64,000 bases of DNA from Dehalococcoidia bacterium (GTDB taxonomy: Bacteria; Chloroflexota; Dehalococcoidia; Plut-88900), in NCBI GenBank assembly GCA_965197645.1, contig OZ240219.1:2432001-2496000 (forward strand). The letters are read 5' to 3'. Shown here piece by piece: positions 11,901 through 37,580 of this stretch (position 1 is the stretch's first letter; each line of letters begins with the position of its first letter). A model generated the notes under the pieces. It was not told where the DNA came from, did no database searches, and saw only the letters and a program-made list of their open reading frames with translations. Made by a program: the position numbers and the translations under genes.

Positions 11901-12667
11901 TTCTGCGAGTCCTCGATGGCCGCCACCCCGCCGTTGGACTGCATTACCAGTATGTCCTGGGCTTTTCTCAGCTGGACCAGACGCTTTTGCAGGCGCATCA
12001 GGTACTCGCCGAACCGGGGTCCGACGTAAGAGTTGACCACCGTGGTGCTGAGCCGGTCGAACTCCTTGATCTGGGGCAGTATCTCGTGGGATAGGGAGGT
12101 GTACAGATTGGGAAACCGCTGCTTGATCCGATCGGCTACGGCCTGTTCATGGTCGGGGTTCAGGTAGGAAAAGAGAAAGCAGACCGCCAGCGCTTCGACT
12201 TGGTCGGCCTCAAGCCGGTCCAACGCTTGGTCCAGCGCCTCCATATCCAGCTCCGTCGATACTTCGCCGTTGGAGCGCACCCGTTCCGGAACATCCATAC
12301 GGAGGTACCGAGGCACCAATGGCTCCACCTGCTTCATCCGAAGGTTGTACCGGTCCTCCTTCATCCCCTCCCGCATCTCCAGCAGGTCCCGGAAGCCCTG
12401 GGTGGTGAGCAGGCCGACCTTGGCCCCCTTGCGCTCTATCAGGGTGTTCGTCGCTACGGTGGTACCGTGGATGATCAGATCGGTCTCCTCCAGCAAGGTT
12501 TCGAGCGGGAGATCTTGGGCCGCGGCCACGTCCTGCAGGCCGGTCAGGACACCCTCCGACGGGTCGTGCGGTGTGGAGGGAGTCTTGAAGTGTCTCGGAC
12601 CTTCCCCGTTCTTCGCCACCACGAAGTCCGTAAACGTCCCGCCTACGTCGATGCCGATCTTGAACAT
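8954..12667 (-). CDS. fused hydantoinase A/B (5-oxoprolinase-like ATP-dependent amidohydrolase)
   Basis: IGIDVGGTFTD, HGTTVATN, SGPAGG and DMGGTSTD (A half); NDPYYGGSHLPD, HHSDVGG and AGGGGFGDP (B half); ATG 12667 after AAAGGAG. Confidence 0.92.
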   Translation of the reverse strand: MFKIGIDVGGTFTDFVVAKNGEGPRHFKTPSTPHDPSEGVLTGLQDVAAAQDLPLETLLEETDLIIHGTTVATNTLIERKGAKVGLLTTQGFRDLLEMREGMKEDRYNLRMKQVEPLVPRYLRMDVPERVRSNGEVSTELDMEALDQALDRLEADQVEALAVCFLFSYLNPDHEQAVADRIKQRFPNLYTSLSHEILPQIKEFDRLSTTVVNSYVGPRFGEYLMRLQKRLVQLRKAQDILVMQSNGGVAAIEDSQKQAVRSILSGPAGGVSGATYYAQLIGESKIIGFDMGGTSTDISLIEDGAPHVTGEKFEGGWKIAVPMIDIHTLGAGGGSVARMDSGGILRVGPESAGADPGPACYDRGGDQPTVTDANLVLGYLDADNFLGGKAKLHKGLAEDAIDRHLSSPLSLSTVEAAHGVHKVVSTNMAEGIRLQSVRRGTDPRDFALLAFGGAAGIHVSRVARELKINKVYLPSAAPVLSAYGMLSTDLRYDFSRSHPVSLDRIDLGQAKSILKELEAEGREKLRAQNVPEDRIDVRYSADMRYLDQVYEVTIPLPDLSEPDATLLSNWAENFHNRYQELYSYHQSEQEIRLITLRVSVLGRLEKTPPAEPNAAMESGKACKGYRQMYLGKWQDVPVYGWGALSPDSDIQGPAVLESDFTTVLIEEGDAVRGDRFGGMELRVAEEAATEQRKEESDPITLAVVQNRLESVALEMMEIMLRTSMSQILNSSRDFSTCILDAKCQLVAQGEGIPVHVSALSLAGQAVVDYFGDEICEGDLYTLNDPYYGGSHLPDITVINPVFHEGRLMFFTVNRAHHSDVGGATWGGYNPGASEIYHEGLRLPPLKLHDKGVPRRDLFRMLAANVRHSENFLGDLNAQIGSVNMAARRISAILERHGADSLTRTIDSILSATEIQVRAMISSWPDGVYKGESFLDDDGFDSKMVPIRATVTIEGDSMTIDLSESSPQVTGFINSGFPNTRSLAHVAIMYMASFDVAKNDGSMRPITIIAPKGLIVNPHPPAPVTMSTNHCGEEIIEAVFKALAPAVPDAISSGFSRRLRFAITGVDPRSDRGFIWHFFHGRGGGGASQGNDGWSNVGEINVAGGLRSPSVEVTEERFPFFIKYYQLRPDSAGDGRWRGGLGTAFEMIYEGTDGARLNTAGDGIVNPPYGLFEGEPGKAHEYRIESEGVERMLWSKELGVPVRPGDRIFTLSAGGGGFGDPEGRPQSERDWDRKNGYVT

Positions 12668-12722
12668 GGGCGCTCCTTTGTCGTGAGCCTGCCAACCTTT
12701 ACACAAGTCAAGTGAAATTAGG

Positions 12723-13834: not shown

Positions 13835-14974
13835 CTAGTTGAAGTTGGGGATCACCTTCTCCGCAAAGAGCTCCAGACTACGCCTGACCTTCTTGAAGGG
13901 TATGCCGGGGAAGTTGAGGAACAGGGCCAGGTGGTTGCAGCCTGTCTCCGCCCTCAGCCTCTCGATCTGCTCCGTCACGTACTCCGGAGAGCCGACCAGC
14001 ACCATGTCGTGGCTGTACTGGAAATCGAAGATATCCATGGAGGGGTCGTCGTTGGCCAACTCCTCCTCGGTGAGGATGGCCTGGCGCATCTTGGCGGGGT
14101 TGCCGCCCTGCCACCTGGACAGCTGGTTGGCGCCCCAGCGGGCGTACTCTATCGCCTCCTCGGTGGTGTCTGCCACGAAGGCCGGCCTCATTACGCTGAC
14201 GCCCTCGCCATAGGGAAACTCTTTGCCCTCCTTGGCTGACCGGGCTTCCTGGTAGGCCAGCCATGACTCGGTGAGTTTGCCGTGGGAGGGAGAGAAGCCC
14301 ATCGCGTTGATGCCTTTGGATCCAGCGAAGGCGTGAGACCGCACCGAGTCGGCCATCTGATAGATAGGCGGATGAGGTTTCTGCACAGGCCGGGGCTCGA
14401 CCCCCAGCCCGATCAGCTCCCCCTCCTCGTTGTGGTACCTTCGATCTGCTCGGCTCAAATCGCTGGCTTCGAAGTAGCCCGGCTCCGGGAATGTGAAGAA
14501 CTCGCCCTTGTGTACCAGGGCATCCTCGGTCCAGGCCCTCATCACGATATCCAGTGTCTCGGCGAATAGGGCGTAGTTGCGCTCCTTCTCTTTCCTATCC
14601 GCGTCTCGGTTGAACTGGACCGAAGACCGGCTGGGGATTCCTCTGCCTATCCCGAACTCGGCCCTACCCTTGGAGATCTGGTCCAGCATCGCCAGGTCCT
14701 CGGCCAACCGGATCGGATGCCAGTCCGGAATAATCGTGCCGCACTGGCCTAGGCGAAGCTTGGTAGTGTGCGCCGCCATGTCGGCGCCCAGCAGTATCGG
14801 GTTGGGGGCGGCCCGGTACCAGCCGTCCCAGTGGAAGTGGTGCTCCGCTAGCCAGACTGCTCCAAAGCCACCTTCTTCCAGGAGCTTCACCGTTTCGCGA
14901 TACTCGTCTATCAGGGTCTCCCATTGGTAGCTGGCATCGCCTACGTGGTAGTAAAGGGTGCTGTCAAATCGCAT
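13835..14974 (-). CDS. LLM-class (luciferase-like) flavin-dependent oxidoreductase
   Basis: VWLAEHHF, WHPIRLAEDLAMLDQISKGR, PRPVQKPHPPI and LELFAEKVIP. Confidence 0.9.
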   Translation of the reverse strand: MRFDSTLYYHVGDASYQWETLIDEYRETVKLLEEGGFGAVWLAEHHFHWDGWYRAAPNPILLGADMAAHTTKLRLGQCGTIIPDWHPIRLAEDLAMLDQISKGRAEFGIGRGIPSRSSVQFNRDADRKEKERNYALFAETLDIVMRAWTEDALVHKGEFFTFPEPGYFEASDLSRADRRYHNEEGELIGLGVEPRPVQKPHPPIYQMADSVRSHAFAGSKGINAMGFSPSHGKLTESWLAYQEARSAKEGKEFPYGEGVSVMRPAFVADTTEEAIEYARWGANQLSRWQGGNPAKMRQAILTEEELANDDPSMDIFDFQYSHDMVLVGSPEYVTEQIERLRAETGCNHLALFLNFPGIPFKKVRRSLELFAEKVIPNFN

Positions 14975-15089
14975 TTGTCACTCCCCGTCGATGTCTGTGA
15001 GTCCCTATCATAAGTTATCTTCTTCCATCGACTCAAATCACCGGGTCGAGGGTAATTGTACACTCATTGAAACAATTAGTCAGCAGAGT

Positions 15090-15118
15090 TTGACATGCGG
15101 TAGGACTGAATACATACT
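15090..15118 (+). promoter_or_regulatory. sigma70-type promoter of the coxS-coxL cluster
   Basis: TTGACA-N17-CATACT, overlapped by the inverted repeat GCGGTAG-N13-CTACCGC. Confidence 0.6.
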
Positions 15119-15137
15119 ACCGCCCAGGAGAGGACAT

Positions 15138-15620
15138 ATGGCAGATCGAAGCGCTATCGGGATGAAGGTCAACGGGCGGAATTATGAGGGTTACGTAGAG
15201 CCCCGCCTAACGCTGGCCGACTTTCTCCGGGCCGAGCTGGGTTTCACCGGCGTACACCTGGGCTGCGAACACGGCGTCTGTGGCGCCTGCACCATCATCT
15301 TCAACGGCGAGGCAGTCAGAAGCTGTCTTATGCTGGCGGTCCAGGGAGACGGCGCCGAGATCGAAACCGTCGAGGGGTTGGCCACCGGCGGTCAGCTTCA
15401 TCCGATCCAGGAGGCCTTCTGGGAGAACCACGGGCTCCAGTGTGGGTTCTGCACTCCCGGATTTCTGATGACCACTTACGCCTTTTTGCAGGAGAACCCG
15501 AACCCGACCGATGATGAGATTCGCGAGGCCCTGTCCGGCAACCTGTGCCGGTGCACCGGCTATCACAGCATCGTGGCCTCGGTGCGCACCGCAGTCGAGA
15601 AACTGAACGCCCGAAGCTAA
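15138..15620 (+). CDS. (2Fe-2S)-binding small subunit, CoxS/XdhC-like
   Basis: GCEHGVCGACT..C, QCGFCTPG and NLCRCTGY; ATG 15138 after AGGAGAGG. Confidence 0.93.
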   Translation: MADRSAIGMKVNGRNYEGYVEPRLTLADFLRAELGFTGVHLGCEHGVCGACTIIFNGEAVRSCLMLAVQGDGAEIETVEGLATGGQLHPIQEAFWENHGLQCGFCTPGFLMTTYAFLQENPNPTDDEIREALSGNLCRCTGYHSIVASVRTAVEKLNARS

Positions 15621-15630
15621 AGGAACCGGG

Positions 15631-18012
15631 ATGATTGAGTCCACGGCCGCCAGGAACGTCGGGGCGCGGATCAAGCCGGTAGAGGACCGGAAGCTGATAT
15701 CCGGCCGCGGCAGCTACCTGGACGATATCCAACTCCCAGCCATGGGCCATGCCGCATTCGCCCGGAGCCCCCACGCCCACGCACGGGTCAAGGGCATAGA
15801 CGTCTCTCAGGCCCTGGAGCTCCCTGGCGTACTGGCCGTCAGGACCGGCCCCGAGCTCAACTCCGCCGTGCCCCCTCTGCGTTTGGGCGCCGATTTCCCT
15901 CACGTCGTTCCCGTTGACATAACACCCCTGGCTTCGGACAGGGTGAGATACGTAGGGGAAGCCGTCGCCATCGTCGTGGCTACCGACCGATACGTGGCGG
16001 AGGACGCCGTCGACCTCATCAAAGTGGACTACGAGCCGCTGCCTCCAGTCCTCGACCCCATCGCAGGAGCGCAAGGGGCGGGAACGCCTCTCTACGACGG
16101 TATGGACAGCAACATCGTTGCCCGTAAGCAAGGCTGGGTGGGAGATACGGAATCAGCGTTGCGCCAGGCCCATCTGGTGGTCAAAGATACCTTCCGGCAG
16201 CAGCGGTACACCCACATACCCATGGAGTGCCGGGGCATCCTGGCCGATTGGAACCCCGGCTCCGAGAGCCTGACCCTGCGGGGCTCCTTCCAGATGGCTC
16301 ACGCGCTCCGAGCCCTGTTCGCCGAGGCCCTTGGACTGGCCGAAAACAAGGTGCGCATCGTCGTGCCCGATGTTGGCGGCGCCTTCGGACAGAAGAGCCA
16401 GGTCTACGGTATCGACTTGGCCGTTTGCCTTGCATCCATGGAGCTGGGGATTCCCGTGAAGTGGACCGAGGACAGGCAGGAGAATCTCCTCGCCTCTGGC
16501 CACGCTAGGGAGCACATCATCGAGCTGGAGGTGGCAGTGGAGAGTGATGGGACGATACTGGGAGTCCGCGCCCACCTCATCGATGACATCGGCGCAAGCC
16601 CCTTGCATCCCTGGCCTGCAGATTCCTGGGTCTCTCACGCCGTAAGCCACCTGCCCAATCACTACAAATTCCCAGCATACAGCTGGGAGACGGTGACCGT
16701 TTTGACCAACAAGTCCCCCGAAGCGCCCTACCGAGGGCCGGGCTCCGCCGCTTCGTCCTGGGCCATGGAAGGCACAATAGACATCATCGCCCGAGAGCTG
16801 GGCCTCGATCCGGTGGAGATCAGGATGAGGAACATGGTCCTGGCCCAGGACCAGCCCTACGTGTCACCGGGAGGAAACCTGCTGGAGAACCTCTCATCGG
16901 TGGAGACCTTCGAGCAGGCCCTTGAGATGGTGGGCTACCCCAACCTTCTCCGGGAGCAGCAGGAGGCCCGCAAGAAGGGACGTTACTTGGGGATCGGCAT
17001 CGGCAGCTTCTCCAGCGGCGCCGCCGCGGATGAGGCGATGAACCCCGTCAATTTGGGCCTCAAAGGCTCCGGCCAGGAGGTGGCGACGGTCCGGATGCTG
17101 CCGACGGGCAGGGTCCAGGCATTCACTTCCGTATCTCCCCATGGCCAGGGACTGGAGACCACCCTCGCTCAGATCCTGTCCGACGAGCTGGGCGTCCCTA
17201 TGGATACCGTCGAGATACTCCACGGCGATAGCGACATGCCCGCCGAGGGCGGCGGCACCTGGGGAGACCGCAGCGCTATCCTGGGCGGCGGCGCTATCAT
17301 AGTGGCGTCACGAGACCTGAAGGGCAAGCTGGTCCGGGCGGCCTCCCGGATGCTGGAAGCACGAGAGCAGGACCTGGATCTTCGAGACGGCTACATAGTT
17401 TCGACCAATGGGCCACAGGAGAAACTACCCGTCGCCGACCTTGCCAGCGCCATCTTTCAGGGCACGGGAATCTTCTCCCAGGACATGGTCGAGGGGACGC
17501 TGACCAGCACCCGGCGGTACGAGTACCCCAAGCGGGGTGGCGCCTCCAACGGCGCCCACGTGGCGGTGGTGGAGGTCGATGGGGAGACCGGTGCGATAGA
17601 GATAGTGCGTTACGTCGGCGTTGAAGACGTCGGTCAGGCCATCAATCCCATCGTAGTAGAGGGTCAGATCAGGGGCTGCGTCGCGCAGGGCCTGGGTGGA
17701 GTCCTCCTCGAAGAGCTCACCTACGACGGTTCGGGCCAGCTCCTGACCACCACCTTTATGGACTATCTCATACCCGAAGCTACGGACCTGCCCGATATAG
17801 AAATACAGCTCTATCACAACCCCACTCCCGACACCCTTGGCGGCTTCAAATCGGCGGGCGAGGGAGGAATATGTGGCGCCATATGCGCCCTGTCCAACGC
17901 CGTCGCCGACGCACTCTCGCCCTTCGGCGTCCGCATAAACGAGCTCCCCCTCAAGCCCCACCGCATCCTGGAGCTAATGGGGAAAGTCCCCAAGACCTCC
18001 CATGAGAGTTGA
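15631..18012 (+). CDS. xanthine dehydrogenase family molybdopterin-binding large subunit (CoxL-like)
   Basis: RSPHAHA, PDVGGAFGQK, APYRGPG, PHGQG, INPIVVEGQIRG and KSAGEGG. Confidence 0.92.
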   Translation: MIESTAARNVGARIKPVEDRKLISGRGSYLDDIQLPAMGHAAFARSPHAHARVKGIDVSQALELPGVLAVRTGPELNSAVPPLRLGADFPHVVPVDITPLASDRVRYVGEAVAIVVATDRYVAEDAVDLIKVDYEPLPPVLDPIAGAQGAGTPLYDGMDSNIVARKQGWVGDTESALRQAHLVVKDTFRQQRYTHIPMECRGILADWNPGSESLTLRGSFQMAHALRALFAEALGLAENKVRIVVPDVGGAFGQKSQVYGIDLAVCLASMELGIPVKWTEDRQENLLASGHAREHIIELEVAVESDGTILGVRAHLIDDIGASPLHPWPADSWVSHAVSHLPNHYKFPAYSWETVTVLTNKSPEAPYRGPGSAASSWAMEGTIDIIARELGLDPVEIRMRNMVLAQDQPYVSPGGNLLENLSSVETFEQALEMVGYPNLLREQQEARKKGRYLGIGIGSFSSGAAADEAMNPVNLGLKGSGQEVATVRMLPTGRVQAFTSVSPHGQGLETTLAQILSDELGVPMDTVEILHGDSDMPAEGGGTWGDRSAILGGGAIIVASRDLKGKLVRAASRMLEAREQDLDLRDGYIVSTNGPQEKLPVADLASAIFQGTGIFSQDMVEGTLTSTRRYEYPKRGGASNGAHVAVVEVDGETGAIEIVRYVGVEDVGQAINPIVVEGQIRGCVAQGLGGVLLEELTYDGSGQLLTTTFMDYLIPEATDLPDIEIQLYHNPTPDTLGGFKSAGEGGICGAICALSNAVADALSPFGVRINELPLKPHRILELMGKVPKTSHES

Positions 18013-18063
18013 GGGGGCTATGGAATGGGCCCCTCCCGGACCGGTGTTTGAAAGGCGGCTGCC

Positions 18064-19143
18064 ATGAAGTTCGGAGCGATAGTCGCAACCAAGATCGACG
18101 ACTGGCAGCTCCTCCGCCATGCCGAGGACCTGGGCTATGATCACGGCTGGGTGCCCGACTCCCAGATGATATGGTCAGACTGCTACGCCACCCTGGCCCT
18201 CGCCGCCGAGCACACCTCCCGGATCAAGCTGGGTACCGGCGTATCCATAGCTCCCACCCGCATCGCGCCGGTGACCGCTCACTCCATTGCCTCCATTAAT
18301 CGCATTGCCCCGGGGAGGGTGTTTCTCGGCATCGGCACCGGCTACACGGCCATGAACGTCATGGGCATGAAGCCCATGTCCGGTCGAGACTTCGGCGAAT
18401 ACGTCCGGGTGGTGCGGGCACTTCTCCACGGCGAAGAGGTGGAGTACACCCTTGGCGAGGAGACGCGAGATATCCGGTTCTTGCATACAGACCTCGGATT
18501 CCTGGACCTCGAACACACCGTTCCCATCTACGTCGCCGCCGATGGGCCGCTGGCACTCGCTGCCGCCGGCGCTTACGGAGACGGCCGTATCTCCTCCGGC
18601 GAGTCCAACCAGCGGCTGGAACGCAGCCTTGCCATCATCCAGGAAGGGGCGCAGACCGCCGGACGGGACCTTCCCGAAGACTTTCACACCGCCGAGCTCA
18701 CCTTCGCTTGCGTCCTGGAGCCCGGAGAGGACCTCACCTCCGATCGGGTGATAGACGAGGTCGGGTCCCAGGTCGCCATGTACCTCCACGGCTGCTACGA
18801 GGTGTATATGAAGCGGGGCAACGATGAGTTCGTTCGCCCCGAGGCCATGGACGACTGGAGGGCCTATCGAGACTACGTCGAGCATACCAACGTGGAAAGG
18901 CACAAAATACACCAGCGACTCCACGAGGGACACTGCACCTACCTGGTGCCGGAGGAGCGGAGATTCATCACGCCCAACACAATCCGCGCCGCCAGGGGCC
19001 TGGTAGGTGAGCCCGACGAGATCATCGAGATGCTGCGAGAAAAAGAGAAGCACGGTCTGAAGGAGGTCACCCTGCTCCCTCCCATGGAGCACGCTCGAGA
19101 CAACTTCTCCTCCTTCGCAAAGCACGTCATGGCCCGCTACTGA
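18064..19143 (+). CDS. LLM-class flavin/F420-dependent oxidoreductase
   Basis: LGYDHGWVPDSQ, TSRIKLGTGV, APGRVFLGIGTG and PIYVAA motifs. Confidence 0.88.
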   Translation: MKFGAIVATKIDDWQLLRHAEDLGYDHGWVPDSQMIWSDCYATLALAAEHTSRIKLGTGVSIAPTRIAPVTAHSIASINRIAPGRVFLGIGTGYTAMNVMGMKPMSGRDFGEYVRVVRALLHGEEVEYTLGEETRDIRFLHTDLGFLDLEHTVPIYVAADGPLALAAAGAYGDGRISSGESNQRLERSLAIIQEGAQTAGRDLPEDFHTAELTFACVLEPGEDLTSDRVIDEVGSQVAMYLHGCYEVYMKRGNDEFVRPEAMDDWRAYRDYVEHTNVERHKIHQRLHEGHCTYLVPEERRFITPNTIRAARGLVGEPDEIIEMLREKEKHGLKEVTLLPPMEHARDNFSSFAKHVMARY

Positions 19144-19189
19144 CCGGCCGGCAACTATATGCTCACCGAATCACCTAGAGGAAAACAGT

Positions 19190-21547
19190 ATGGCTGATAC
19201 CACAACAAGCGTCGGCTCCCGGGTGCAACCCGTCGAGGACCGGAAGCTGATCTCCGGCGCAGGCGCATACATCGATGACATTCAGCTTCCCCGCATGGTG
19301 CACGCCGCCTTCCTCCGAAGTCCCCACGCCCACGCCCGCATAGTAAGCATCGATACCAGCAAGGCCGAAGAGCTCCCTGGAGTCCTGTTGGTCCGGACCG
19401 GGCGCGATCTCAAGCCCAGGCTCATGGCCCTAGAGGTTGGGGTGGGCATGGACGATGTCGAGACCATCGAAGTCACCCCGCTGGCCCTGGACAAGGTCCG
19501 CATGGTCGGTTCATCCGTCGCCATCGTAGTCGCCACGGACCGCTACATCGCCGAGGACGCCCTGGAGCTGATAGAAGTTGATTACGAGCCTCTCGAACCG
19601 GTCGTCGATCCCCAGGCCTCCGCCAGCGGCGAAGGTACCCCCCTCTACGACCACATGTCCAATAACATCGTCTCCATCAACCGGGACGAGGTTGGCGACA
19701 TGGCGGCGGCCATGGCCGCCGCCGACCGGGTCATCAGGGAGACCTACACCCAGCAGCGCTATACTCACGTCCCCATGGAGTGCCGCGGCATCATCGCTCA
19801 CTGGAACCCAGGCTCCCAGGAGATGGTCATCCGGGCCTCCATCCAGTTCGCCCATGCGGCCCGGTCCATGCTCGCCGAGATCCTGGGGCTCCCCGAGAAC
19901 AAGGTGCGGGTCATCGTTCCCGACGTGGGAGGGGCCTTCGGACAGAAGGGCGGCTTCTACCCAGAGGACATGGCCGTCTACCTGACGGCGCTGGAGTTGG
20001 GGGTGCCGGTCAAATGGATAGAGGACCGGCGGGAGAACCTGTCCGCATCCGCCCATGCTCGCCAGCACTCCATCGAGATGGAGATGCCCGTAAAGAACGA
20101 TGGCACGATCCTGGGCATGAAGGTCCGCATGGTGGACGACGTAGGCTGCGGACCTCTGTATCCAATCGTACCGAACAACTGGGTGTTTAACGCCCTCCAG
20201 CACCTGCCCAGCCATTACAGGGTGCCCGCCTACAGCTGGGAGGCCCTATGCGTGTTGACCAACAAGTCACCCGAAGGTCCCTACCGGGGCCCCGGCGCCG
20301 CCATAGCCTCCTGGACCATGGAGAGCACCCTGGACACCGTCGCTCGGGAGCTGGGCCTGGACCCCGCCGACGTGAGGCGCAAGAACATCGTCCGCAGCGA
20401 TGAGCTGCCCTACGATTCGGTGGGTCGCTTCACCCTTGCCAACGTCTCCTCCCTGGAGACCATGGAGAAAGCCCTGGAGCTCATCGACTACGAGGGTTTC
20501 CGCAAGGAGCAGGAACAGGCACGCAAAGAGGGCCGCAGGCTGGGAATAGGTATCGGCAGCTTCACCAACGGCAACGCGGCCAACGTGAACCCAGCCACCT
20601 TCGGGTTCAAGGGCGCCGGCAAGGAAACGGCCACCGCTCGTGTGCAATCCACGGGCTCGGTGCAGCTCTTCACCGCCCTATCACCCCATGGCCAGGGCTC
20701 GGCAACCACCATGGGACAGGTGCTGGCCGACGAGCTGGGCATTCCCTTCGATACTATCGAAGTCCTTCACGGGGACAGTGACATGCCCGCGGACGGCGCT
20801 GGCACGTGGGGCGACCGCAGCACCATCATGGGCGGCGGCGCCGTCATATCGGCTGGTCGGGGGCTGAAGAAGAAGCTGATCCATGCTGGCTCGCTCCTCC
20901 TGGAGGCCCAGGAAGAGGATCTGGACGTCCAGGATGGGTACGTGTTCTCCAAGAGCAACGCGAATGTGCGCATGTCGGTGGCCGACGTCGCCGAGGCCGT
21001 CTACTCCGGCGCCGACGAGCTAATCGGCAAGTTCGAGGGGGTCTTGGCCAGCACCAACCACTACGAGATTCCCGAGAAGAAGGTTGCGGCCAACGGTTGC
21101 CACGTCGCTATCGTTGAGGTCGATCCGAGCACCGGCACAATTGACATAAAGCGTTACGTTGGAGTGGAGGACGTGGGCCGGGTCATCAACCCCATCGTCG
21201 TAGAAGGTCAGATCAGGGGGTGCGTCGCCCAGGGGCTGGGCGGCGCCCTTTTCGAGCAGATCGTTTACGATGATTCAGGCCAGCTTCTCACCAACAGCTT
21301 CATGGACTACCTCCTACCCGAGGCCACGGACGTGCCCGATATCGAAGTCCACCTTTTCAACAACCCGACCCCCGACACCTTGGGCGGATTCAAGAACGCC
21401 GGAGAGGGAGGCATCCCCGGTTCCCTCTGCTCCGTAACCAACGCCATCGCCGATGCACTGGCGCCCCAGGAAGTCCGCATCAACCGGCTGCCCCTCAAAC
21501 CGGACCGCATCCTGGAGCTGTTGGGCAACGTGTCCCGGGCTTCCTAG
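19190..21547 (+). CDS. xanthine dehydrogenase family molybdopterin-binding large subunit (CoxL-like), paralog 2
   Basis: Same motifs as 15631..18012 (PDVGGAFGQK, GPYRGPG, GTWGDR, KNAGEGG). Confidence 0.92.
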   Translation: MADTTTSVGSRVQPVEDRKLISGAGAYIDDIQLPRMVHAAFLRSPHAHARIVSIDTSKAEELPGVLLVRTGRDLKPRLMALEVGVGMDDVETIEVTPLALDKVRMVGSSVAIVVATDRYIAEDALELIEVDYEPLEPVVDPQASASGEGTPLYDHMSNNIVSINRDEVGDMAAAMAAADRVIRETYTQQRYTHVPMECRGIIAHWNPGSQEMVIRASIQFAHAARSMLAEILGLPENKVRVIVPDVGGAFGQKGGFYPEDMAVYLTALELGVPVKWIEDRRENLSASAHARQHSIEMEMPVKNDGTILGMKVRMVDDVGCGPLYPIVPNNWVFNALQHLPSHYRVPAYSWEALCVLTNKSPEGPYRGPGAAIASWTMESTLDTVARELGLDPADVRRKNIVRSDELPYDSVGRFTLANVSSLETMEKALELIDYEGFRKEQEQARKEGRRLGIGIGSFTNGNAANVNPATFGFKGAGKETATARVQSTGSVQLFTALSPHGQGSATTMGQVLADELGIPFDTIEVLHGDSDMPADGAGTWGDRSTIMGGGAVISAGRGLKKKLIHAGSLLLEAQEEDLDVQDGYVFSKSNANVRMSVADVAEAVYSGADELIGKFEGVLASTNHYEIPEKKVAANGCHVAIVEVDPSTGTIDIKRYVGVEDVGRVINPIVVEGQIRGCVAQGLGGALFEQIVYDDSGQLLTNSFMDYLLPEATDVPDIEVHLFNNPTPDTLGGFKNAGEGGIPGSLCSVTNAIADALAPQEVRINRLPLKPDRILELLGNVSRAS

Positions 21548-21692: not shown

Positions 21693-22808
21693 AGCGGAAG
21701 AGTAACTACAGTAAGCTAGAGGAGAACCTATGAGCGCGCTGGATAAGTTCAACGCTCGCCTGGACGCAGGTGAAATCATCATTATGGATGGGGGCACCGG
21801 CACCGAGATACATCGCCGGGGCGCTTCCTTCGATCCGAAAACGTGGACCGGCTCGGCCATGTTGGACTATCCCGATCTAGTCAGAGAAATTCACGAAGAC
21901 TATCTCCGGGCCGGCGCCGATATCATCACTGCCAACAGCTTCAGCGCTAGCCCCACCTTTCTGAAACAGGGCGGCCTGGGCCACCGCATTGAAGAGATCA
22001 ACAAGTTGGCGGTGCAGGTTGCCAGAGAGGCGATCGTCAACGCCGCACCCGACAGGGAAGTGCTCCTGGTCGGCTCCATGGCCACTATAAATCCCATGGG
22101 GGATCCTCAGGACCCTGTCACTTACGAAGCGGCCCTCGAGGACTACCGGGAGCAGGCTGGATACCTGGCCGAGGCCGGTGCCGATGTCATCGCTGCCGAG
22201 ATGATCGTCCGCATCACAGATGCGAAAGCCGCCGTGACAGCGGCCACAGAGCTCGGCCTGCCCGCGTGGGTGGGTTTCTCCTCCGTGGTCCGCCCCGAGG
22301 ACGAGCAGATGCTGGGTTACCACGGTCGGGCTGGGGTTGACACCCTGAAAGAGGCGGTGGAGGCCGTCGAGCCCCTTGGCGTGTCGATGTTCCACACCAT
22401 GCACTCCCGGCCGGAGGATACCGCCCCAGCCTACATCGAGATCAAGGAGGTTACCAATCTGCCTGTTGGCGCCTACTCTCACACCATCAAGGACAGGACC
22501 GCAAACGAGGAATTCGATGAGGGATATACCGATCGGATCATCGAGCAGAACCCCACCACCGAAACCTTCCTAGGATTTGCCAGGGAGTGGGCCGCCCTCG
22601 GCGCACAGGTCATCGGTGGCTGCTGCGGCACCACGCCGGACTACATCAAAGCGCTGAAGGTGGGCCTGCTGCCTGGTAGCAGAAGAGTAACTACAGTAAG
22701 CTAGGGGAGAACCTATGAGCGCTCTGGATAAGTTCAACGCTCGCCTGGACGCAGGTGAAATCATCATTATGGATGGGGGAACCGGCACCGAGATACATCG
22801 CCGGGGCG
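21693..22808 (+). repeat. near-identical ~130-bp direct repeat (21693-21823 / 22678-22808)
   Basis: GAAGAGTAACTACAGTAAGCTAG(A/G)GGAGAACCTATGAGCGC...CGCCGGGGCG at both positions, 985 bp apart. Confidence 0.9.
21730..22704 (+). CDS. homocysteine S-methyltransferase family protein, copy 1 (altered C-terminus)
   Basis: MDGGTGTE, HEDYLRAGADII and IGGCCGTTP. Confidence 0.9.
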   Translation: MSALDKFNARLDAGEIIIMDGGTGTEIHRRGASFDPKTWTGSAMLDYPDLVREIHEDYLRAGADIITANSFSASPTFLKQGGLGHRIEEINKLAVQVAREAIVNAAPDREVLLVGSMATINPMGDPQDPVTYEAALEDYREQAGYLAEAGADVIAAEMIVRITDAKAAVTAATELGLPAWVGFSSVVRPEDEQMLGYHGRAGVDTLKEAVEAVEPLGVSMFHTMHSRPEDTAPAYIEIKEVTNLPVGAYSHTIKDRTANEEFDEGYTDRIIEQNPTTETFLGFAREWAALGAQVIGGCCGTTPDYIKALKVGLLPGSRRVTTVS

Positions 22809-23671
22809 TCACCGTCGACGCGAAGACCTGGTCCGGCTCGCCGATGTTGGAGCATCCGGGTCTGGTTAGAGAAATCCATGAAGACTATCTCAGAGCCGGC
22901 GCCGATATCATCATCGCCAACACCTTCAGTACCAGCCGTTCCATTCTGGAAGAGGGCGGTATGGGAGACCGCACCGAGGAAGCCAACAGGGCCGCTGTAC
23001 GGATTGCCAGAGAAGCCATTGAGAACGTCGCGCCCGATAGGGAAGTGCTATTGGTCGGCTCCATGGCTACCATCAATCCCCTGGGCGACCCCAATGTACC
23101 CGTCTCTTACGATGCGGCCCTCGATGAATACCGTGAACAGGCCGGGTACCTGGCCGATGCCGGTGTCGATGTCATCGCCGCCGAGATGATCATCAGGATC
23201 GTCGATGCAAAAGCCGCCGTGATCGGGGCCGCCGAGACCGGCCTGCCCGTGTGGATGGGTTTCTCCTCGATCGACCACGAAGGCACGCAGATGCTGGGTC
23301 TTCACAGCTGGCACCAAAACGAGAACCTGAAAGAAGCCGTGGAGACCGTCGAGCCCCTGGGGGTATCGATGTTCCACACCATGCACTCACTGCCTTCGGA
23401 CACCGCCCCGGCCCTTCGTGAGTTGAGAGAGACCACGAAGCTGCCCCTTGGCGCTTACGCCCACACCATCGGAGACGACGTCGCCGAAATGACCTTCGAT
23501 GAGGGATTTCCGGATATAGTCGACAACCAGAACCCTTCCAGCCTGGCCTACCTCCAGTTTGCCAGAAAATGGGCCGATCTGGGAGCACAGGTTATCGGTG
23601 GCTGCTGCGGCACCACCCCGGACCAGATCAAAGCTCTAAAGGAGGGCCTTCCGCAGAAGGTCCCCGCTTGA
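22715..23671 (+). CDS. homocysteine S-methyltransferase family protein, copy 2
   Basis: Same motifs as copy 1; ends ALKEGLPQKVPA. Confidence 0.9.
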   Translation: MSALDKFNARLDAGEIIIMDGGTGTEIHRRGVTVDAKTWSGSPMLEHPGLVREIHEDYLRAGADIIIANTFSTSRSILEEGGMGDRTEEANRAAVRIAREAIENVAPDREVLLVGSMATINPLGDPNVPVSYDAALDEYREQAGYLADAGVDVIAAEMIIRIVDAKAAVIGAAETGLPVWMGFSSIDHEGTQMLGLHSWHQNENLKEAVETVEPLGVSMFHTMHSLPSDTAPALRELRETTKLPLGAYAHTIGDDVAEMTFDEGFPDIVDNQNPSSLAYLQFARKWADLGAQVIGGCCGTTPDQIKALKEGLPQKVPA

Positions 23672-23686
23672 TACCGGAGACTCGCT

Positions 23687-23803
23687 ATGCCCCGACTCAC
23701 CATCCTCGGCTCCGGCGCTCCGACCCCTACCCCTGACCGATTCGGATCGTCCTTCGTCCTGCACCTGGGCGGCGAGCGAATCATGGTGGAAGTGTCGGTA
23801 TAA
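23687..23803 (+). pseudogene. truncated 5' duplicate (38 aa) of the MBL-fold hydrolase gene
   Basis: MPRLTILGSGAPTPTPDRFGSSFVLHLGGERIMVEVSV* versus MLRLTVLGSGAPTPTPDRFGSSFVLHLGDERIMVD at 24799; homology stops at about 23790. Confidence 0.9.
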
Positions 23804-23826
23804 CAACCTAGGCTAAAGGAGAAACG

Positions 23827-24783
23827 ATGAGTGCTCGGGATACTTTTTACGCTCGCCTGAACGCAGGCGAAATCATCATTATGGATGGGGGCACCGGCAC
23901 CGAGATACATCGCCGGGGCGTCACCGTTGACTCGAAAACCTGGTCCGGCTCTCCTATGCTGGAGTATCCGGATCTAGTTAGAGAAATCCACGAAGACTAT
24001 CTCCGGGCCGGCGCCGATATCATCATTGCCAACACCTTTAGCACCAGTCGTGCCGTTCTGGAAAAGGGCGGCCTGGGCGACCGCGTCGAAGAAGCCAACA
24101 AACTGGCGGTAGAGGTAGCCAGAGAGGCGATCGCAAACGCCGCACCCGATAGGGAAGTGCTCTTGGTGGGCTCCATGGCTACCGTCAATCCCCTGGGCGA
24201 TCCCAATATACCCGTCTCCTACGATGCGGCTCTCGATGACTACCGGGAGCAGGCCCGGTACCTGGCCGATGCCGGTGTCGATGTCATCGCCGCCGAGATG
24301 ATCATCAGGATCCTCGATGCAAGAGCTGCCGTGACGGCGGCCGCCGAGACGGGCCTGCCCGTTTGGGTGGGTTTCTCATCGGAGGACCGCGTGGGCAAGC
24401 AGATGCTGGGTCTTCACGGCTGGGCCGGTAACGAGAGCTTGAAAGAAGCAGTGAAGACCGTCGAGCCCATGGGGGTGTCGATGTTCTACACTATGCACTC
24501 GCTCCCGGAGAATACCGCCCCGGCCCTTCTCGAGCTGAAAGAGGTCACGAACCTGCCTCTGGGGGCTTACTCTCACACCGTCCGGGATGACGTCGCAAAG
24601 ACAGTATTAGAAGACGGAAGTCCAGAACGGGTCGTGGCGCAGAACCCTTCCAGCGAAGCTTTTCTCGGATTTGCCAGAGAGTGGGCCGGCCTCGGCGCGC
24701 GGGTCATCGGTGGCTGCTGCGGCACCACCCCGGACCACATCAGAGCGCTGAAGGAAGGCCTGCCGCAGAAAGTACCTGCTTGA
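23827..24783 (+). CDS. homocysteine S-methyltransferase family protein, copy 3
   Basis: Same motifs as copies 1 and 2; ends ALKEGLPQKVPA. Confidence 0.9.
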   Translation: MSARDTFYARLNAGEIIIMDGGTGTEIHRRGVTVDSKTWSGSPMLEYPDLVREIHEDYLRAGADIIIANTFSTSRAVLEKGGLGDRVEEANKLAVEVAREAIANAAPDREVLLVGSMATVNPLGDPNIPVSYDAALDDYREQARYLADAGVDVIAAEMIIRILDARAAVTAAAETGLPVWVGFSSEDRVGKQMLGLHGWAGNESLKEAVKTVEPMGVSMFYTMHSLPENTAPALLELKEVTNLPLGAYSHTVRDDVAKTVLEDGSPERVVAQNPSSEAFLGFAREWAGLGARVIGGCCGTTPDHIRALKEGLPQKVPA

Positions 24784-27482: not shown

Positions 27483-28874
27483 GTGAACGTAATCTGGATA
27501 GTCGCCGATACTTTCCGGTGGGACCGGATGGGGGCCTACGGTAACGATTGGATCAATACTCCTGCCCTAGACTCCCTTGCCGCCAAGTCCGTCCGGTTCG
27601 ATCGGCACTACCTCTCTTCCTTTCCCACCGTTCCGGCGCGCGCTGACCATCACACCGGCCAATGGACCATGTCGTTCATGGGGTGGGAACCCCTTCCCGC
27701 CCATTCCATAACCCTTGCCGACCTTCTCTCCCAACGAGGGCACACTACCGTTGCCGTAGTTGACACGCCCTTCTACATCAGGGACGGGATGAACTACGAC
27801 AGGGGGGTTCAGGGCTTCTTCTTCAACCCGAGCCAGGACGCATCGCTAAACCCGGGCCAATACAGGATCGAGTCCCGAGACCTTCGTGCAGCGTGGCGGT
27901 CCGAGGCGGACCACGCGGCGCCTCAGACCCTCACCTGGGCGATGCAGTGGCTCGAACGCCACTACAAGGAGGACTTCTTCCTCTACATCGATACCTGGGA
28001 CCCCCATGAGCCTTGGGACGCTCCCGCCTATTACACCGAGACGTACATGCCCGACTATGACGGCGAGATCGTCGACCCGCTTTACAGCCGGTGGCAGGAC
28101 GTGCCCGGATACACCGAGGCCAAGGTGAAGAAGGCCCACGCAGCCTACTGCGGGGAACTGACGATGGTCGATACCTGGATCGGGTACCTGCTAAGGTGCG
28201 TCTAGAACATGGGACTCATGGACAAGACGGCCATAATCTTCACCACCGACCACGGGTTTCTGTTCGGGGAACACGGAGGGCACTTCGGGAAACTGGTCTA
28301 CATGCAGGATGAGGGGCAGGAGAAATTGGAATCGTTATCGCCGAAAGGGGACGCCGGCTGGGGGCATGATCCCCTCTACGAGGAGATAGTCCACATACCC
28401 CTGCTCATGTACGTGCCCGGGATCAAACCGGGCGTCTACGACAAGCTGACGGTGGCCGTGGACGTGATGCCCACGGTGATGGATATGCTCGATCTACCGA
28501 TTCCCGACCACGTGGAGGGAAGCTCCCTGCTACCCCGCATGCACGATCTGTCGGCGCCGGGTCGCGAGTTCGTGGTCAGCGGTAGGCCCTTTGCCAATCC
28601 GGGCGCCCGGGTCAGGCACGTGGACCACTGGCTGAGATGGGCCAAGGTGCACTCCGTTTCCACCGTCACCGCCGGCGATTGGTCTCTTCTGTACGCCCCG
28701 GAGGCGGGCAAGTCGGAGCTGTACAACCTGGCGACGGACCCGCAGCAGCGGCACAACGTGGTCAACGACAGGGAAGACGTGGCGCGTGATATCCACCAGT
28801 ACCTGCGGAAGTTCATGGCCGATACCAATTTGTCCGACCAACTGAAGGGGCCCAGGCAGGAGTTTCGAGGGTAG
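27483..28874 (+). pseudogene. sulfatase-like hydrolase interrupted by an in-frame TAG (28203-28205)
   Basis: NVIWIVADTFRWD, TPALD, SFPTVPAR, DPHEPW, then TAG, then IIFTTDHG, LYEEIVHIPL and ELYNLATDP in the same frame. Confidence 0.8.
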
Positions 28875-34486: not shown

Positions 34487-34731
34487 CTGCCGTATCGGAG
34501 CACCCTGGTTGGAAGGACACGAATGGTGAGGGGCAGCCCACGAATGCAATACAGGGTGGGAGGGCAGACCAACCTGGGGATGGGGCCCATCCTAATGGCG
34601 AGCCCGTAAAAGGCAGCGCCTCTGCACCTGAGTGACGGTGGCCAAATGGCACTTCCGCATGCGAAGAGACGCCCACTGGGCTATAATTGACCCCGCCTTA
34701 CACCTTTACCCCCTTCCACAGGAGGACGTAA

Positions 34732-35034
34732 ATGCGCCTTACCCCTAAAGAGATGGACCGCCTGACCATCTTCTCCGCCGCCGAGCTGGCACGCCGCCGC
34801 CGGGACAAGGGCCTCAAGCTCAACTATCCCGAAGCGGTAGCCCTCATCTGCGACGAGCTGCTGGAGGACGGTCGAGAGGGCAAGAACTACGAGGAAGTCA
34901 TGGACCACGCCGTCAGCATCCTCACTACCGATGACGTGCTCAATGGAGTCCCCGAGCTGGTCACCCCGATCCGCCTCGAAGTCACCTTCGATGACGGCAA
35001 CAAGCTTATCTACGTCGAAGACCCTATAAGATAG
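34732..35034 (+). CDS. ureA: urease gamma subunit
   Basis: MRLTPKE, GLKLNYPEAVALI and TFDDGNKL; RBS AGGAGG; TATAAT at 34682. Confidence 0.92.
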   Translation: MRLTPKEMDRLTIFSAAELARRRRDKGLKLNYPEAVALICDELLEDGREGKNYEEVMDHAVSILTTDDVLNGVPELVTPIRLEVTFDDGNKLIYVEDPIR

Positions 35035-35045
35035 GAGACCACCCC

Positions 35046-35417
35046 GTGAAACCAGGCGAAATCATACCTGCCCAGGGCAGCATCCGCATAAACGAGGGCC
35101 GCGAGTCCATTACAGTATCCGTGGAAAATACCTCCGATCACGCCGTGCAGATCACCTCCCACTACCACTTCTTCGAGGCCAACAAGCGACTCCGCTTCGA
35201 TAGAGCGGCAGCATACGGCCGCCGGTTGGACGTGCCCGCCGGCGCCGGCGTCCGATGGGAAGCCGGCGAGACGAAAGATGTCCAGCTCATCGAAATTGGC
35301 GGCAAGCGGAGGGTATTCGGGTTTCAGGGCTTCGTTAACGGCCATCTTAGCGATGAACAACAGGGCGAAGCCCTGGCAAGAGCCCACGACCGTGGGTTCA
35401 TGGACGTGGAGGAATAA
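35046..35417 (+). CDS. ureB: urease beta subunit
   Basis: KPGEI, NEGR, SHYHFFEAN, FDRAAAYGRRLDVPAG and GFQGFVNG. Confidence 0.92.
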   Translation: MKPGEIIPAQGSIRINEGRESITVSVENTSDHAVQITSHYHFFEANKRLRFDRAAAYGRRLDVPAGAGVRWEAGETKDVQLIEIGGKRRVFGFQGFVNGHLSDEQQGEALARAHDRGFMDVEE

Positions 35418-35419
35418 CC

Positions 35420-37096
35420 ATGGCCGGTGAATTGGACCGCTCTGAATACAACGCTCTCTATGGGCCCACCACCGGAGACCGGATACGGCTGGGCGATACC
35501 GACCTGATCATGGAGGTCGAGGCCGACCACACCTCGTACGGCAACGAGGTCCTGTCCGGCTGGGGCAAGACCGCTCGTACCGGCATGATGCACGCCTATC
35601 GACGACCCAGGGACAGCGAGCTCGACGCCCTCATTGCCAACGTCATAATCATGGACCCGGTCCTGGGCATCTTCAAAGGCGATATCGGGATCAAGGACGG
35701 CCTCATCGCCGGGGTCGGCCGCGCCGGCAATCCGGACATCATGGACGGGGTGGATCTGGTCATCGGCCCCAACACGGACGTGTTTCCCGTCGGCGGCCTG
35801 ATAGCTACACCGGGCGGCGTCGACAGCCACGTCCACATCTACCACAACCCCAAGCTGATGCAGACCGCCATAAGCGCCGGGCTGACCACTTTCATCGGCG
35901 CCGGGCTGAACCACAACGACTACTTTACCATCCACAAGTACTTCGAGGCCTTCGAGGAGATTCCGATAAACCTGGGCGTCCAGGGCAGGGGCGCCGCCAG
36001 TCATCCCGCCCCCATCGAGCGAAACATCGAGGCCGGGGCCTGCGGCATGAAGATCCACGAGGACGAGGGCGCATATCCCTACGTCATCGACCTCTGCCTG
36101 CAGGTCGCCGAGCAGTACGACGTGTCCGTTGCGCTTCACACCGACGGTCTTCAGGAATCGATGCAGGTCACCGATACCATAGAAGCTGTCGGTGGCCGGG
36201 CCCTTCACGCCTACCACGTTGAGGGTGTTGGCGGCGGCCATGCGCCCGATCTGCTCAAGCTGGCCGGCGTCGAAAACATCATGACCTCCTCCACCACCCC
36301 AACCGTCCCCTACACCGCCGGCACTTACCAGGAGCACTTCCCGATGACGGCCCAGATCCACGGGCTCTCCTACGAGCTGCCGTCCGACGTGGCCGCCCTC
36401 GAGGCCCGGGTGCGCCGCGAGACCATGGCCGCCGAGGACGTGCTTCACGATATGGGCGCCGTCCCCATCATCAACTCCGACTCCCAGGGAATGGGTCGCA
36501 TAGGAGAGGTGATCACCCGGGCCTGGCAGCTTGCGCACAAGATGAAGCTGGAGCGGGGCGCTTCCAACCCGGACAACGACAACGATCGCATCCTCCAGTA
36601 TCTCGCCAAGGTAACCATCAACCCCGCTATTACCCACGGCATATCCGACTACGTTGGCTCCCTAGAGAAGGGCAAAATGGCCGACATAGTGCTCTGGCAG
36701 CCTCGCTTCTTCGGTGTGAAACCCGAAACGGTCATCAAGGGCGGGTTCACCACGTGGGGAGCAAACGGCGAGGGCAACGCCTCGATAGGCCACTCCGAGC
36801 CGGTGATCTACGGCCCATCCTTCGGCGCCATGGGACACGCCGCCGGAAAGCTGAGCGCCTTCTTTGTGTCACAAGCATCCGTGGACAAGGGATTGGAGAA
36901 GCAGCTGGGCAGCCGGCGCCAGGTCCTGCCTGTCAGGAACGTCCGGTCCGCTTCCAAGCGGAAGATGAACCGCAACAGCCTCAACCCGGACATCAACATC
37001 GATCCTCAGACCTCCCGGGTGTTGGTCAACGGACAGGAAGCCACCTCCGAGGCCGTCACCGAGGTGGCCCTAAACAGGCTCTACGTGATCACCTAG
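35420..37096 (+). CDS. ureC: urease alpha subunit, divergent
   Basis: YGPTTGDRIRLGDT, DSHVH, KIHED, HTD, HVEGVGGGHAPD, SDSQGMGR and TINPAITHG. Confidence 0.9.
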   Translation: MAGELDRSEYNALYGPTTGDRIRLGDTDLIMEVEADHTSYGNEVLSGWGKTARTGMMHAYRRPRDSELDALIANVIIMDPVLGIFKGDIGIKDGLIAGVGRAGNPDIMDGVDLVIGPNTDVFPVGGLIATPGGVDSHVHIYHNPKLMQTAISAGLTTFIGAGLNHNDYFTIHKYFEAFEEIPINLGVQGRGAASHPAPIERNIEAGACGMKIHEDEGAYPYVIDLCLQVAEQYDVSVALHTDGLQESMQVTDTIEAVGGRALHAYHVEGVGGGHAPDLLKLAGVENIMTSSTTPTVPYTAGTYQEHFPMTAQIHGLSYELPSDVAALEARVRRETMAAEDVLHDMGAVPIINSDSQGMGRIGEVITRAWQLAHKMKLERGASNPDNDNDRILQYLAKVTINPAITHGISDYVGSLEKGKMADIVLWQPRFFGVKPETVIKGGFTTWGANGEGNASIGHSEPVIYGPSFGAMGHAAGKLSAFFVSQASVDKGLEKQLGSRRQVLPVRNVRSASKRKMNRNSLNPDINIDPQTSRVLVNGQEATSEAVTEVALNRLYVIT

Positions 37097-37166: not shown

Positions 37167-37580
37167 CTAGTCGTCGAGCCCGAGCTCACGAAGCAGTTCG
37201 ACGGTCTCCTCGTACTCTTCAGGCTTTGGAAGATCATCGAACTTTTTGAACTGTCCCGAGGCGGCTCTTAAGGCCGTCTGCAGACGCCCCTCCAGCTCGG
37301 CGCCGCGGGAGACCAGTGTAGGTATGATCTCCCTCCGTCCGTACATGATGGCGTAGTCAAGGGGCGTCGCGTTACGGTCCTGATCTTGAAGCTCGAGACT
37401 GGCTCCGCGATCAAGAAGAAGCTCGATCATTTGCAGGCGGTCTTGGAAAATCGCCCAATGGATGGGAGGGGGCGTCTCCTCCACCGAATCGACGAGTTCA
37501 GGTTGAGCTGCAAGCAAGGACTTCGCCTGGCTCAAGTCGTCCGCGTCGATTGCGTCATACAACTGGTCCAGGCTGCCCAT
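37167..37580 (-). CDS. ankyrin repeat protein
   Basis: PPIHWAI...IELLLDRGA and TPLDYAI...LVSRGA. Confidence 0.8.
   Translation of the reverse strand: MGSLDQLYDAIDADDLSQAKSLLAAQPELVDSVEETPPPIHWAIFQDRLQMIELLLDRGASLELQDQDRNATPLDYAIMYGRREIIPTLVSRGAELEGRLQTALRAASGQFKKFDDLPKPEEYEETVELLRELGLDD

Follow-up and report, generated by a model that had tools for sequence, protein, structure and literature searches.

A short-loop UreABC lineage with a predicted rebuilt urea pocket, found with urease accessory genes only in genomes that also encode a canonical urease

The window analyzed here is a stretch of 64,000 nucleotides from a Dehalococcoidia bacterium (contig OZ240219.1, positions 2,432,001 to 2,496,000), and it carries at positions 34732-37096, on the + strand, three closely packed genes, ureA, ureB, and ureC, for a urease-like enzyme. 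As judged from alignments and a structural model, the catalytic subunit UreC has the urease fold, an intact dinuclear-metal ligand set, and a rebuilt pocket wall. Its sequence places it in a widespread, uncharacterized short-loop UreABC lineage, called here type B, in which the shortened loop appears as a trait of the lineage and not as a local oddity. In the genomes searched, this lineage occurs without the accessory genes of nickel insertion unless a canonical urease is also present. These comparisons favor, with somewhat better than even confidence, a true urease that would be independent of accessory proteins, act on internally produced urea and hold one of the metals Ni, Fe, Mn, Co, or Zn. 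The three genes are as follows.

34732..35034, + strand: ureA, urease gamma-type small subunit, 100 amino acids (Pfam Urease_gamma 126 bits; NCBIfam PRK13241 131 bits, cut-off 123).
35046..35417, + strand: ureB, urease beta-type small subunit, 123 amino acids, GTG start (Pfam Urease_beta 133 bits; NCBIfam PRK13203 137.9 bits, cut-off 129).
35420..37096, + strand: ureC, alpha catalytic subunit, short-loop type B, 558 amino acids (Pfam Urease_alpha 149 bits and Amidohydro_1 169 bits).

The two small-subunit genes, both over their NCBIfam cut-offs, stand directly upstream of ureC, and the gene order gamma-beta-alpha is found in all type-B loci that have enough upstream sequence. Window UreC is about 50% identical to solved ureases (E 5e-169; range 45-50% across comparisons), and it is barely over the NCBIfam urease equivalog TIGR01792 (683.5 bits, cut-off 680). 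Type-B UreC copies from 19 genomes score 621-692 bits on the same model, mostly below the cut-off, and the canonical UreC copies present in type-B genomes score 877-920 bits.

Window UreC was aligned residue by residue to H. pylori UreB and to the S. pasteurii, H. mustelae, and Klebsiella ureases. On the 3' side of a deletion described below, the S. pasteurii residue number equals the window number plus 9. The active-site features are located as follows, with S. pasteurii equivalents in brackets.

35828..35836, + strand: metal ligands His137-x-His139 (same numbers in S. pasteurii), from the alignment to 1s3t_C; invariant in 134 UreC-type sequences.
35897..35920, + strand: remodelled loop G160-A-G-L-N-H-N-D167, in place of GGGTGPxxGTxATTxTPG, from the alignments and the model.
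36050..36064, + strand: K211-I-H-E-D215, with the equivalents of K220 (carbamylated in ureases), H222 (binds urea O), and D224 (flap lock), from the alignment.
36137..36241, + strand: metal ligands H240 (H249) and H266 (H275), and G271 (G280), the carbonyl binding the distal urea N; invariant columns.
36323..36409, + strand: mobile flap (helix 302-313, turn, helix 321-330), from the alignment and the model.
36479..36493, + strand: D354, metal ligand (D363), G357 (A366 position; the backbone carbonyl binds urea N), and M358.

All metal ligands are aligned, H137, H139, K211, H240, H266, and D354 corresponding to S. pasteurii H137, H139, K220, H249, H275, and D363, respectively. Equivalents of the urea-binding and flap-lock residues are also kept (H213, D215, G271, G357 through its backbone, H314, and R330). 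Among the 134 UreC-type sequences, which include all loop types, no variation is seen at D135, H137, H139, K211, H213, H240, H266, H314, and D354, and D215 and R330 are kept in 90% or more.

The difference lies in the loop. Pairwise alignments place in window UreC a 10-residue deletion corresponding to S. pasteurii Gly167-Gly176, including Ala170, and the same 10-column gap is seen in a MAFFT alignment of 122 UreC sequences. According to a review of the urease mechanism (PMC7433671), the urea bound in the S. pasteurii complex is contacted at its O by His222, at its Ni(2)-bound N by the backbone carbonyls of Ala170 and Ala366, and at its distal N by Gly280 and Ala366, and the flap is locked in the closed state by Asp224, His323, and Arg339. 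Ala170 is the only urea contact of this complex for which window UreC has no equivalent. The flap sequence MLMVCHHL is changed to MTAQIHGL, where Cys322 becomes Ile313, the catalytic His323 is kept as His314, and Arg339 corresponds to Arg330; a urease review describes the flap Cys as conserved. Thus neither the canonical loop with its Ala170 carbonyl nor the conserved flap Cys is present. Other pocket changes are HEDWG to HEDEG (Trp to Glu216), HTDTLNE to HTDGLQE, and SQAMG to SQGMG.

The AlphaFold (AF2) model of window UreC, built from the 134-sequence alignment, has a predicted local distance difference test (pLDDT) value of 92.2 and a predicted template-modelling (pTM) score of 0.94; an earlier model from a 20-sequence alignment (pLDDT 46) was discarded. 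The retained model superimposes on solved ureases with template-modelling (TM) scores of 0.94-0.97 and root-mean-square deviations of 1.5-2.1 Å. The 39 listed urease chains fall at TM 0.91-0.97, and the next fold class, that of allantoinase and hydantoinase, at about 0.5. In the model, strand 155-161 is joined to helix 167-180 through about five residues, and the helix-turn-helix of the flap is retained. A preliminary description of this DNA had named the metal-ligand motifs (DSHVH, KIHED, HTD, YHVEG, SDSQ) and the changed substrate-facing segments (MTAQIHGL, GAGLNHND, HEDEG, HTDGLQE, SSTTPT, SQGMG), had called the GGGTGP..GTxATT loop shorter, and had proposed a urease fold with an intact di-metal site and a rebuilt pocket. 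Every motif is found in the translation, the ligands and the 10 missing residues are borne out by the pairwise and 122-sequence alignments, and the model agrees with the proposed fold.

The short loop is far from confined to the window. Among 5.8 billion proteins searched, 120 matches were listed, of which the 118 with at least 500 amino acids were aligned, and among these matches listed the short loop is found in 118 of 118. They are named 'urease subunit alpha' and come from Dehalococcoidia, Chloroflexota, Planctomycetota, Methylomirabilis, Tectomicrobia/Entotheonellaceae, and Bathyarchaeia; matches in the ESM Atlas are just generic 'urease subunit alpha' clusters. In the 118 relatives the flap His (position 314) is always His, and position 166 of the new turn is mostly Asn (N 97, T 20, K 1). 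The position of the Trp of HEDWG (216) is variable (Y 55, E 32, T 20). The flap-Cys position (313) is mostly Val (V 88, I 13, C 13). The Cys loss pointed out in the preliminary description holds for the window (Ile313), but since 13 of the 118 relatives keep Cys, the loss is common and not lineage-defining. The flap Cys is dispensable for urease catalysis.

Five loop types can be defined on loci from named genomes and metagenomes.

Canonical: full-length loop; many phyla.
Type B (window): 10-residue deletion; Dehalococcoidia, Rokubacteria, Planctomycetota, and others.
Type C: 'TAGFEEPP', 11-residue deletion; Actinomycetota and Chloroflexia.
Type D: 4-residue deletion; Thermomicrobia and some Actinomycetota.
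Type E: 3-residue deletion; two loci only.

Besides the deletion, just seven positions strictly split type B from canonical UreC. Two of these, HTD-G and SQ-G-MG, are common to types B, C, and D, which also have the same catalytic set and a remodelled version of the same loop; position 357, that of Ala366, is Gly in every type B, C, and D sequence and Ala in canonical UreC. Types C and D differ from type B in loop sequence and length and in flap sequence, and are separate, well-supported groups. Loci of these two non-canonical types are L058-L128, L202-L248, and L258-L263, from other genomes and metagenomes. Type C copies were also considered as gamma-beta-alpha fusions, and this was ruled out, as their long open frames are without a gamma or beta domain. 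Members of types B, C, and D come from soil, groundwater, marine, and sponge-associated bacteria.

The earlier suggestion that divergent ureC copies form a clade holds, and more than one such lineage exists (types B, C, and D). Three splits are seen in an LG+G4 tree of 90 sequences with supports from the Shimodaira-Hasegawa-like approximate likelihood-ratio test (SH-aLRT), namely type B (98), type C (100), and canonical plus type E (99). When the loop, HEDxG, and flap columns are removed and a site-heterogeneous model is used, type B is found as two groups that are not joined, B1 (support 99), consisting of the Dehalococcoidia and including both ureC copies of the window genome, and B2 (100), with Rokubacteria, Planctomycetota, and soil metagenomes. 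The union of B1 and B2 is not rejected by the approximately unbiased (AU) test (p = 0.257), and type C is a separate group with support 100 in both trees. The monophyly of B1 and B2 and the deep order of the UreC lineages do not appear settled by these trees.

We know of no characterization of UreC types C or D, although no literature search was aimed at these loop types. Full-text searches, with subscription journals largely outside their reach, found no paper on a short-loop or accessory-less urease lineage; one paper deals with canonical thaumarchaeal and proteobacterial ureases (PMC11289388).

Among nickel enzymes urease is the textbook case, and as a rule it is taken to depend on the UreD/F/G chaperones. 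To our knowledge, the exceptions to this rule are single organisms, namely B. subtilis and, with its iron urease, H. mustelae. A hidden Markov model (HMM) search of the whole window genome (one contig of 3,211,320 bases; 94.46% complete, 6.35% contamination) found no ureG, UreD, UreF, or UreE_C match at E <= 0.001. The absence of ureD/E/F/G, observed in the preliminary description for the 64 kb, extends therefore to the whole genome, and it extends further to the order and to the lineage across phyla. A UreC-like gene with 81-86% identity occurs in 9 of the 12 genomes of the order, and ureG, UreD, and UreF each in none of the 12. Among 20 type-B genomes, accessory genes are found only in two that also carry canonical UreC. 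Both are among the 11 type-B genomes of other groups: ureG is over the cut-off in G314 and G317, UreD and UreF likewise, and these are exactly the genomes with an extra canonical UreC (877 and 920 bits, respectively). UreD and UreF share a contig with the canonical UreC in both; ureG is on the canonical UreC's contig in G314 and on another contig in G317.

A sample of 301 genomes of the phylum served as a control. In it ureG is present in 34 of 34 genomes with canonical-loop UreC, usually beside UreC, and in none of the 10 genomes with only non-canonical UreC (two type B, two type D, and six type C). Four UreC-positive genomes, three with fragments and G038, each with a ureG match, were left out of this comparison. 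A set of 15 type C genomes shows the same pattern (ureG 0/15, UreF 0/15, one partial UreD-like match). Type D genomes are mixed, with ureG in 7 of 15, in at least two cases owing to an additional canonical copy.

It is quite improbable that the enzyme is an ordinary nickel urease whose accessory proteins were missed because they are too divergent, lie in unassembled DNA or are replaced by general metallochaperones. Completeness estimates of 80-94% in the order leave some room for missing genes, but 9 of its 12 genomes (the window genome and 8 of 11 kin) are single contigs. Search sensitivity appears adequate, since the same searches recovered ureG in all 34 canonical-UreC genomes of the phylum sample. 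In its favor, the window genome has a MeaB-type G3E GTPase, which however adjoins unrelated genes, and a marginal NicO-like match (28.6 bits, cut-off 27.7). In 49 type-B loci from genomes and metagenomes only ureA and ureB recur, directly upstream of ureC, and in the L199/L200 variant the two small-subunit genes are fused into one. No family besides these is found in more than six of the 49 loci, and a clustering of 19 loci likewise gave nothing conserved. Because no neighbor is conserved beyond the small subunits, neither a substitute chaperone nor a consistent pathway partner is indicated.

A dead or decaying urease relic, or a protein kept for a non-enzymatic role, is the least probable of the explanations weighed here. 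Decay is seen in places, in a truncated ureC copy of 525 amino acids in the kin genome G304 and in a lone paralogue in the window genome that is without the Asp of HED. The window genes were compared with nine orthologous copies in eight kin genomes, and the median ratio of non-synonymous to synonymous substitutions (dN/dS) is 0.048 for ureC, 0.065 for ureA, and 0.12 for ureB, i.e., 0.05-0.12 across all three genes, at dS of about 1-2, near saturation. Metal ligands and catalytic residues are invariant across the lineage, which persists in several phyla. A tandem duplicate is maintained in G308, where the ureA-ureB-ureC unit is repeated about 8 kb apart with cadherin-domain genes between the copies (G308:C5:611910-621520, L159). 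The window ureABC genes are thus intact and under strong purifying selection, and on these sequence data they appear functional.

The paralogue in the window genome is a second ureC, about 245 kb upstream of the window (G000:C1:2221604-2223274, = L002:1495-3171, - strand). It is of type B, has 558 amino acids, is 68% identical to window UreC, and has no adjacent ureA or ureB; its flanking genes encode a class-III aminotransferase and an enoyl-CoA hydratase. The metal ligands are kept, the HED motif reads KIHEYSG, and the flap is different (MMTAGPVHDL). In the tree this copy is sister to the window clade.

The preliminary description had also proposed a different substrate. In this alternative the fold and chemistry are the same and the physiological substrate is an N-substituted urea, a ureide, a carbamate, or a small amide, which we regard as rather unlikely. 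The pocket gives it some ground: the 10-residue deletion takes out a urea-contacting carbonyl, and the loss of the Ala170 loop would open or reshape the pocket on the side of the second metal. The HEDWG Trp has given way to a variable residue, HTDT and SQAMG are changed, and type-B scores are at or below the urease equivalog cut-off. In addition, no urea transporter was found, and several loci lie among C-N hydrolases (in the window, in amidohydrolase arrays of the sister genus, and in four soil loci). The other urea contacts and the Asp-His-Arg flap lock are nevertheless invariant or nearly so, which argues for a urea-sized carbamoyl head group. The genes preceding ureABC in the window, which had been taken to fit a different substrate (a formamidase-like gene, a hydrolase, and two amidohydrolases), are real, but none of them is conserved with the type-B lineage. 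With no neighbor conserved across the lineage, the context points to no particular alternative substrate, and gene context as a substrate clue was rejected on the 19 and the 49 loci alike. Overall, the different-substrate idea gained no positive support, as all urea contacts but Ala170 are kept and the supply of urea in the cell favors urea.

This supply comes from the genome itself. The window genome has 16 genes for arginase-family, urea-releasing ureohydrolases, including an array of six, and two ureohydrolase pairs are located 11 kb and 27 kb from the window. It also has 20 Creatinase_N/M24-type genes. Neither urea carboxylase nor any other urea-degrading system was found in the window genome. 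Urea is thus probably made inside the cell from guanidino compounds, with UreABC as the only candidate for its removal. Examples of the arginase-family and Creatinase_N-type expansion in the 3.2-Mb genome are found at C1:2419650-2421468, 2522591-2525732, and 1499107-1505039.

In the favored reading, that of an accessory-independent urease, the UreA-UreB-UreC complex would become active without the UreD/UreE/UreF/UreG nickel-insertion machinery. The enzyme would most likely still hydrolyze urea, supplied in the cell by the 16 ureohydrolases, and urea would be bound bidentately across the dinuclear center as in canonical urease. Asn166, conserved in the five-residue turn, may replace the lost Ala170 carbonyl as hydrogen-bond acceptor. 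Other carbamyl-lysine amidohydrolases load their metals spontaneously, and in the same way Lys211 could be carbamylated and the metals bound here.

Several observations weigh against this reading. The deletion takes away a carbonyl of the pair that binds the Ni(2)-bound N, so that weaker or altered urea binding could result. The ureohydrolases are not specific to the genomes that have the enzyme: arginase-family genes number 10-16 in each of the 12 genomes of the order, and the three without a UreC-like gene still have 10, 12, and 15. Within the order, ureohydrolase number does not discriminate the genomes with the UreC-like gene from those without it, and it was rejected as a correlate. The urea transporter UrtA is over the cut-off in none of the 12 genomes of the order, and no UT was found. 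An AmiS/UreI-family membrane protein of 178 amino acids (G000:C1:2640013-2640504, L249:7014-7550; 30 bits, cut-off 25), a possible amide or urea channel, is a weak match, unlinked to the operon and located beside the MeaB GTPase. The kin genomes behind the accessory-gene counts are not independent, and for the genomes reached through loci (G312-G353) completeness is not reported. The treatment of B1 and B2 as one clade hinges on the model and the columns used. Three short RNA contigs from two sponge-metagenome libraries of one study are identical to parts of ureA (34809-34987) and ureC (36017-36173 and 36740-36991), but the runs were found using this gene, DNA carry-over is possible, and the lack of cover on the flanking genes is uninterpretable; the exact matches are a weak hint of ureABC transcription.

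Finally, canonical-loop UreC is found without a ureG match in four genomes (ureG 0/4), so that remodelled enzymes are not alone in occurring without accessory genes. These are a Mycobacterium sp. (L093, G349), Mycolicibacillus trivialis (L123, G350), a Thermodesulfobacteriota metagenome-assembled genome (L116, G351), and Priestia iocasae (L125, G348). In both mycobacterial copies the flap, MTTVTHHL in one and MTAVTHNL in the other, is without Cys.

Among characterized enzymes, the canonical nickel ureases UreABC of K. aerogenes, S. pasteurii, and H. pylori (EC 3.5.1.5) share with the window enzyme the gene order, the fold, 45-50% identity, the metal ligands, the carbamylatable Lys, and equivalents of His222, Asp224, Gly280, His323, Arg339, and Asp363. 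The window enzyme differs from them in being without the Gly167-Gly176 loop, in having Ile for the flap Cys and HEDEG, HTDG, and SQGMG, and in that no UreD/E/F/G was found in the window genome or the order and no urea transporter was found. B. subtilis resembles it in having structural genes without accessory genes; its ureABC is described as lacking accessory genes and as having very low activity (PMC8600894). As a control, the B. subtilis genome was over the UreC cut-off and gave no ureG match. Priestia iocasae, a relative of B. subtilis, has the full canonical loop and an MMMVCHHL flap, and groups with canonical ureases. By comparison with this relative, B. subtilis looks like an isolated accessory-gene loss in a canonical enzyme, in contrast to the whole remodelled lineage described here.

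The iron urease of H. mustelae is active without nickel-specific accessory proteins. This enzyme, UreA2B2 (PDB 3qga, 'Iron Containing Urease'), is of the urease family and matches the model with TM 0.95. Unlike window UreC, chain 3qga_C has the canonical loop GGGTGPVDGTNATTITPG, HEDWG, HTDT, and an MLMTCHHL flap, and it is no closer to window UreC than other ureases are (543.6 bits vs. 566.6 for H. pylori). As the loop and flap of 3qga are canonical, the window enzyme is not of the iron-urease type, and 3qga gives no signature from which its metal could be predicted. A broader proposal, possible though doubtful, is that type B, probably together with types C and D, forms a large, phylogenetically broad set of enzymes whose dinuclear center would contain a non-nickel metal (Fe, Mn, Co, or Zn) and would for that reason assemble without UreDEFG.

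Other features at the operon are these.

34719..34726, + strand: ribosome-binding site AGGAGG, few bases 5' of the ureA start, read from the sequence.
About 34683-34688: TATAAT-like box upstream of ureA, read from the sequence; a consensus promoter scan found nothing significant upstream of ureA.
37167-37580, - strand: ankyrin-repeat gene, convergent, downstream of ureC.

Upstream of ureABC the window has two Amidohydro_2 genes, an acetyl-CoA hydrolase/transferase gene, a short FmdA/AmdA-like gene (70 bits), and a short alpha/beta hydrolase gene. In the sister genus, the operon is located between giant cadherin-domain genes and amidohydrolase arrays (Amidohydro_1, Amidohydro_2); in the kin loci L154-L161, giant cadherin-domain proteins (about 550, 1100, and 1700 amino acids) flank ureABC. 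The ankyrin and cadherin genes by the operon, together with the RNA contigs from sponge metagenomes, suggest a sponge-associated lifestyle. An M20-ureABC-solute-binding-protein arrangement is found in four soil loci only, two of which have an amidase-signature gene upstream on the opposite strand.

Elsewhere in the window, the region with a fused hydantoinase A/B-oxoprolinase gene of 1250 amino acids (8957-12706, - strand) and two xanthine-dehydrogenase-family molybdoenzymes with a 2Fe-2S subunit (14958-21544, + strand) has LLM-class oxidoreductases and MFS transporters around it, and looks like a general catabolic island. Three tandem homocysteine S-methyltransferase paralogues (Pfam S-methyl_trans) follow at 21730-24780 (+ strand). 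A sulfatase gene at 27483-28874 (+ strand) is present as two same-frame open reading frames separated by a single TAG at 28203-28205, which may mark a pseudogene, a read-through site, or an error of sequencing.

In type B, a whole lineage is both without the chaperone genes and altered in the urea pocket in one particular way. Its members from Dehalococcoidia, Rokubacteria, Planctomycetota, Methylomirabilia, and Tectomicrobia carry no more than the annotation 'urease subunit alpha'. In the one phylum sampled, the loop type was a perfect predictor of accessory genes (34/34 vs. 0/10). If these enzymes are active, counting ureC in metagenomes, or requiring ureDEFG, would misjudge the capacity for ureolysis, a shortage of nickel might not restrict the use of urea by type-B organisms, and the lineage would be a natural experiment on the need of canonical urease for chaperones and on the role of the Ala170 loop. 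If the tentative non-nickel proposal were true, nickel-independent urea hydrolysis would be common in nature and not one Helicobacter curiosity, and the chaperone-dependent nickel urease would be one specialized branch of the family.

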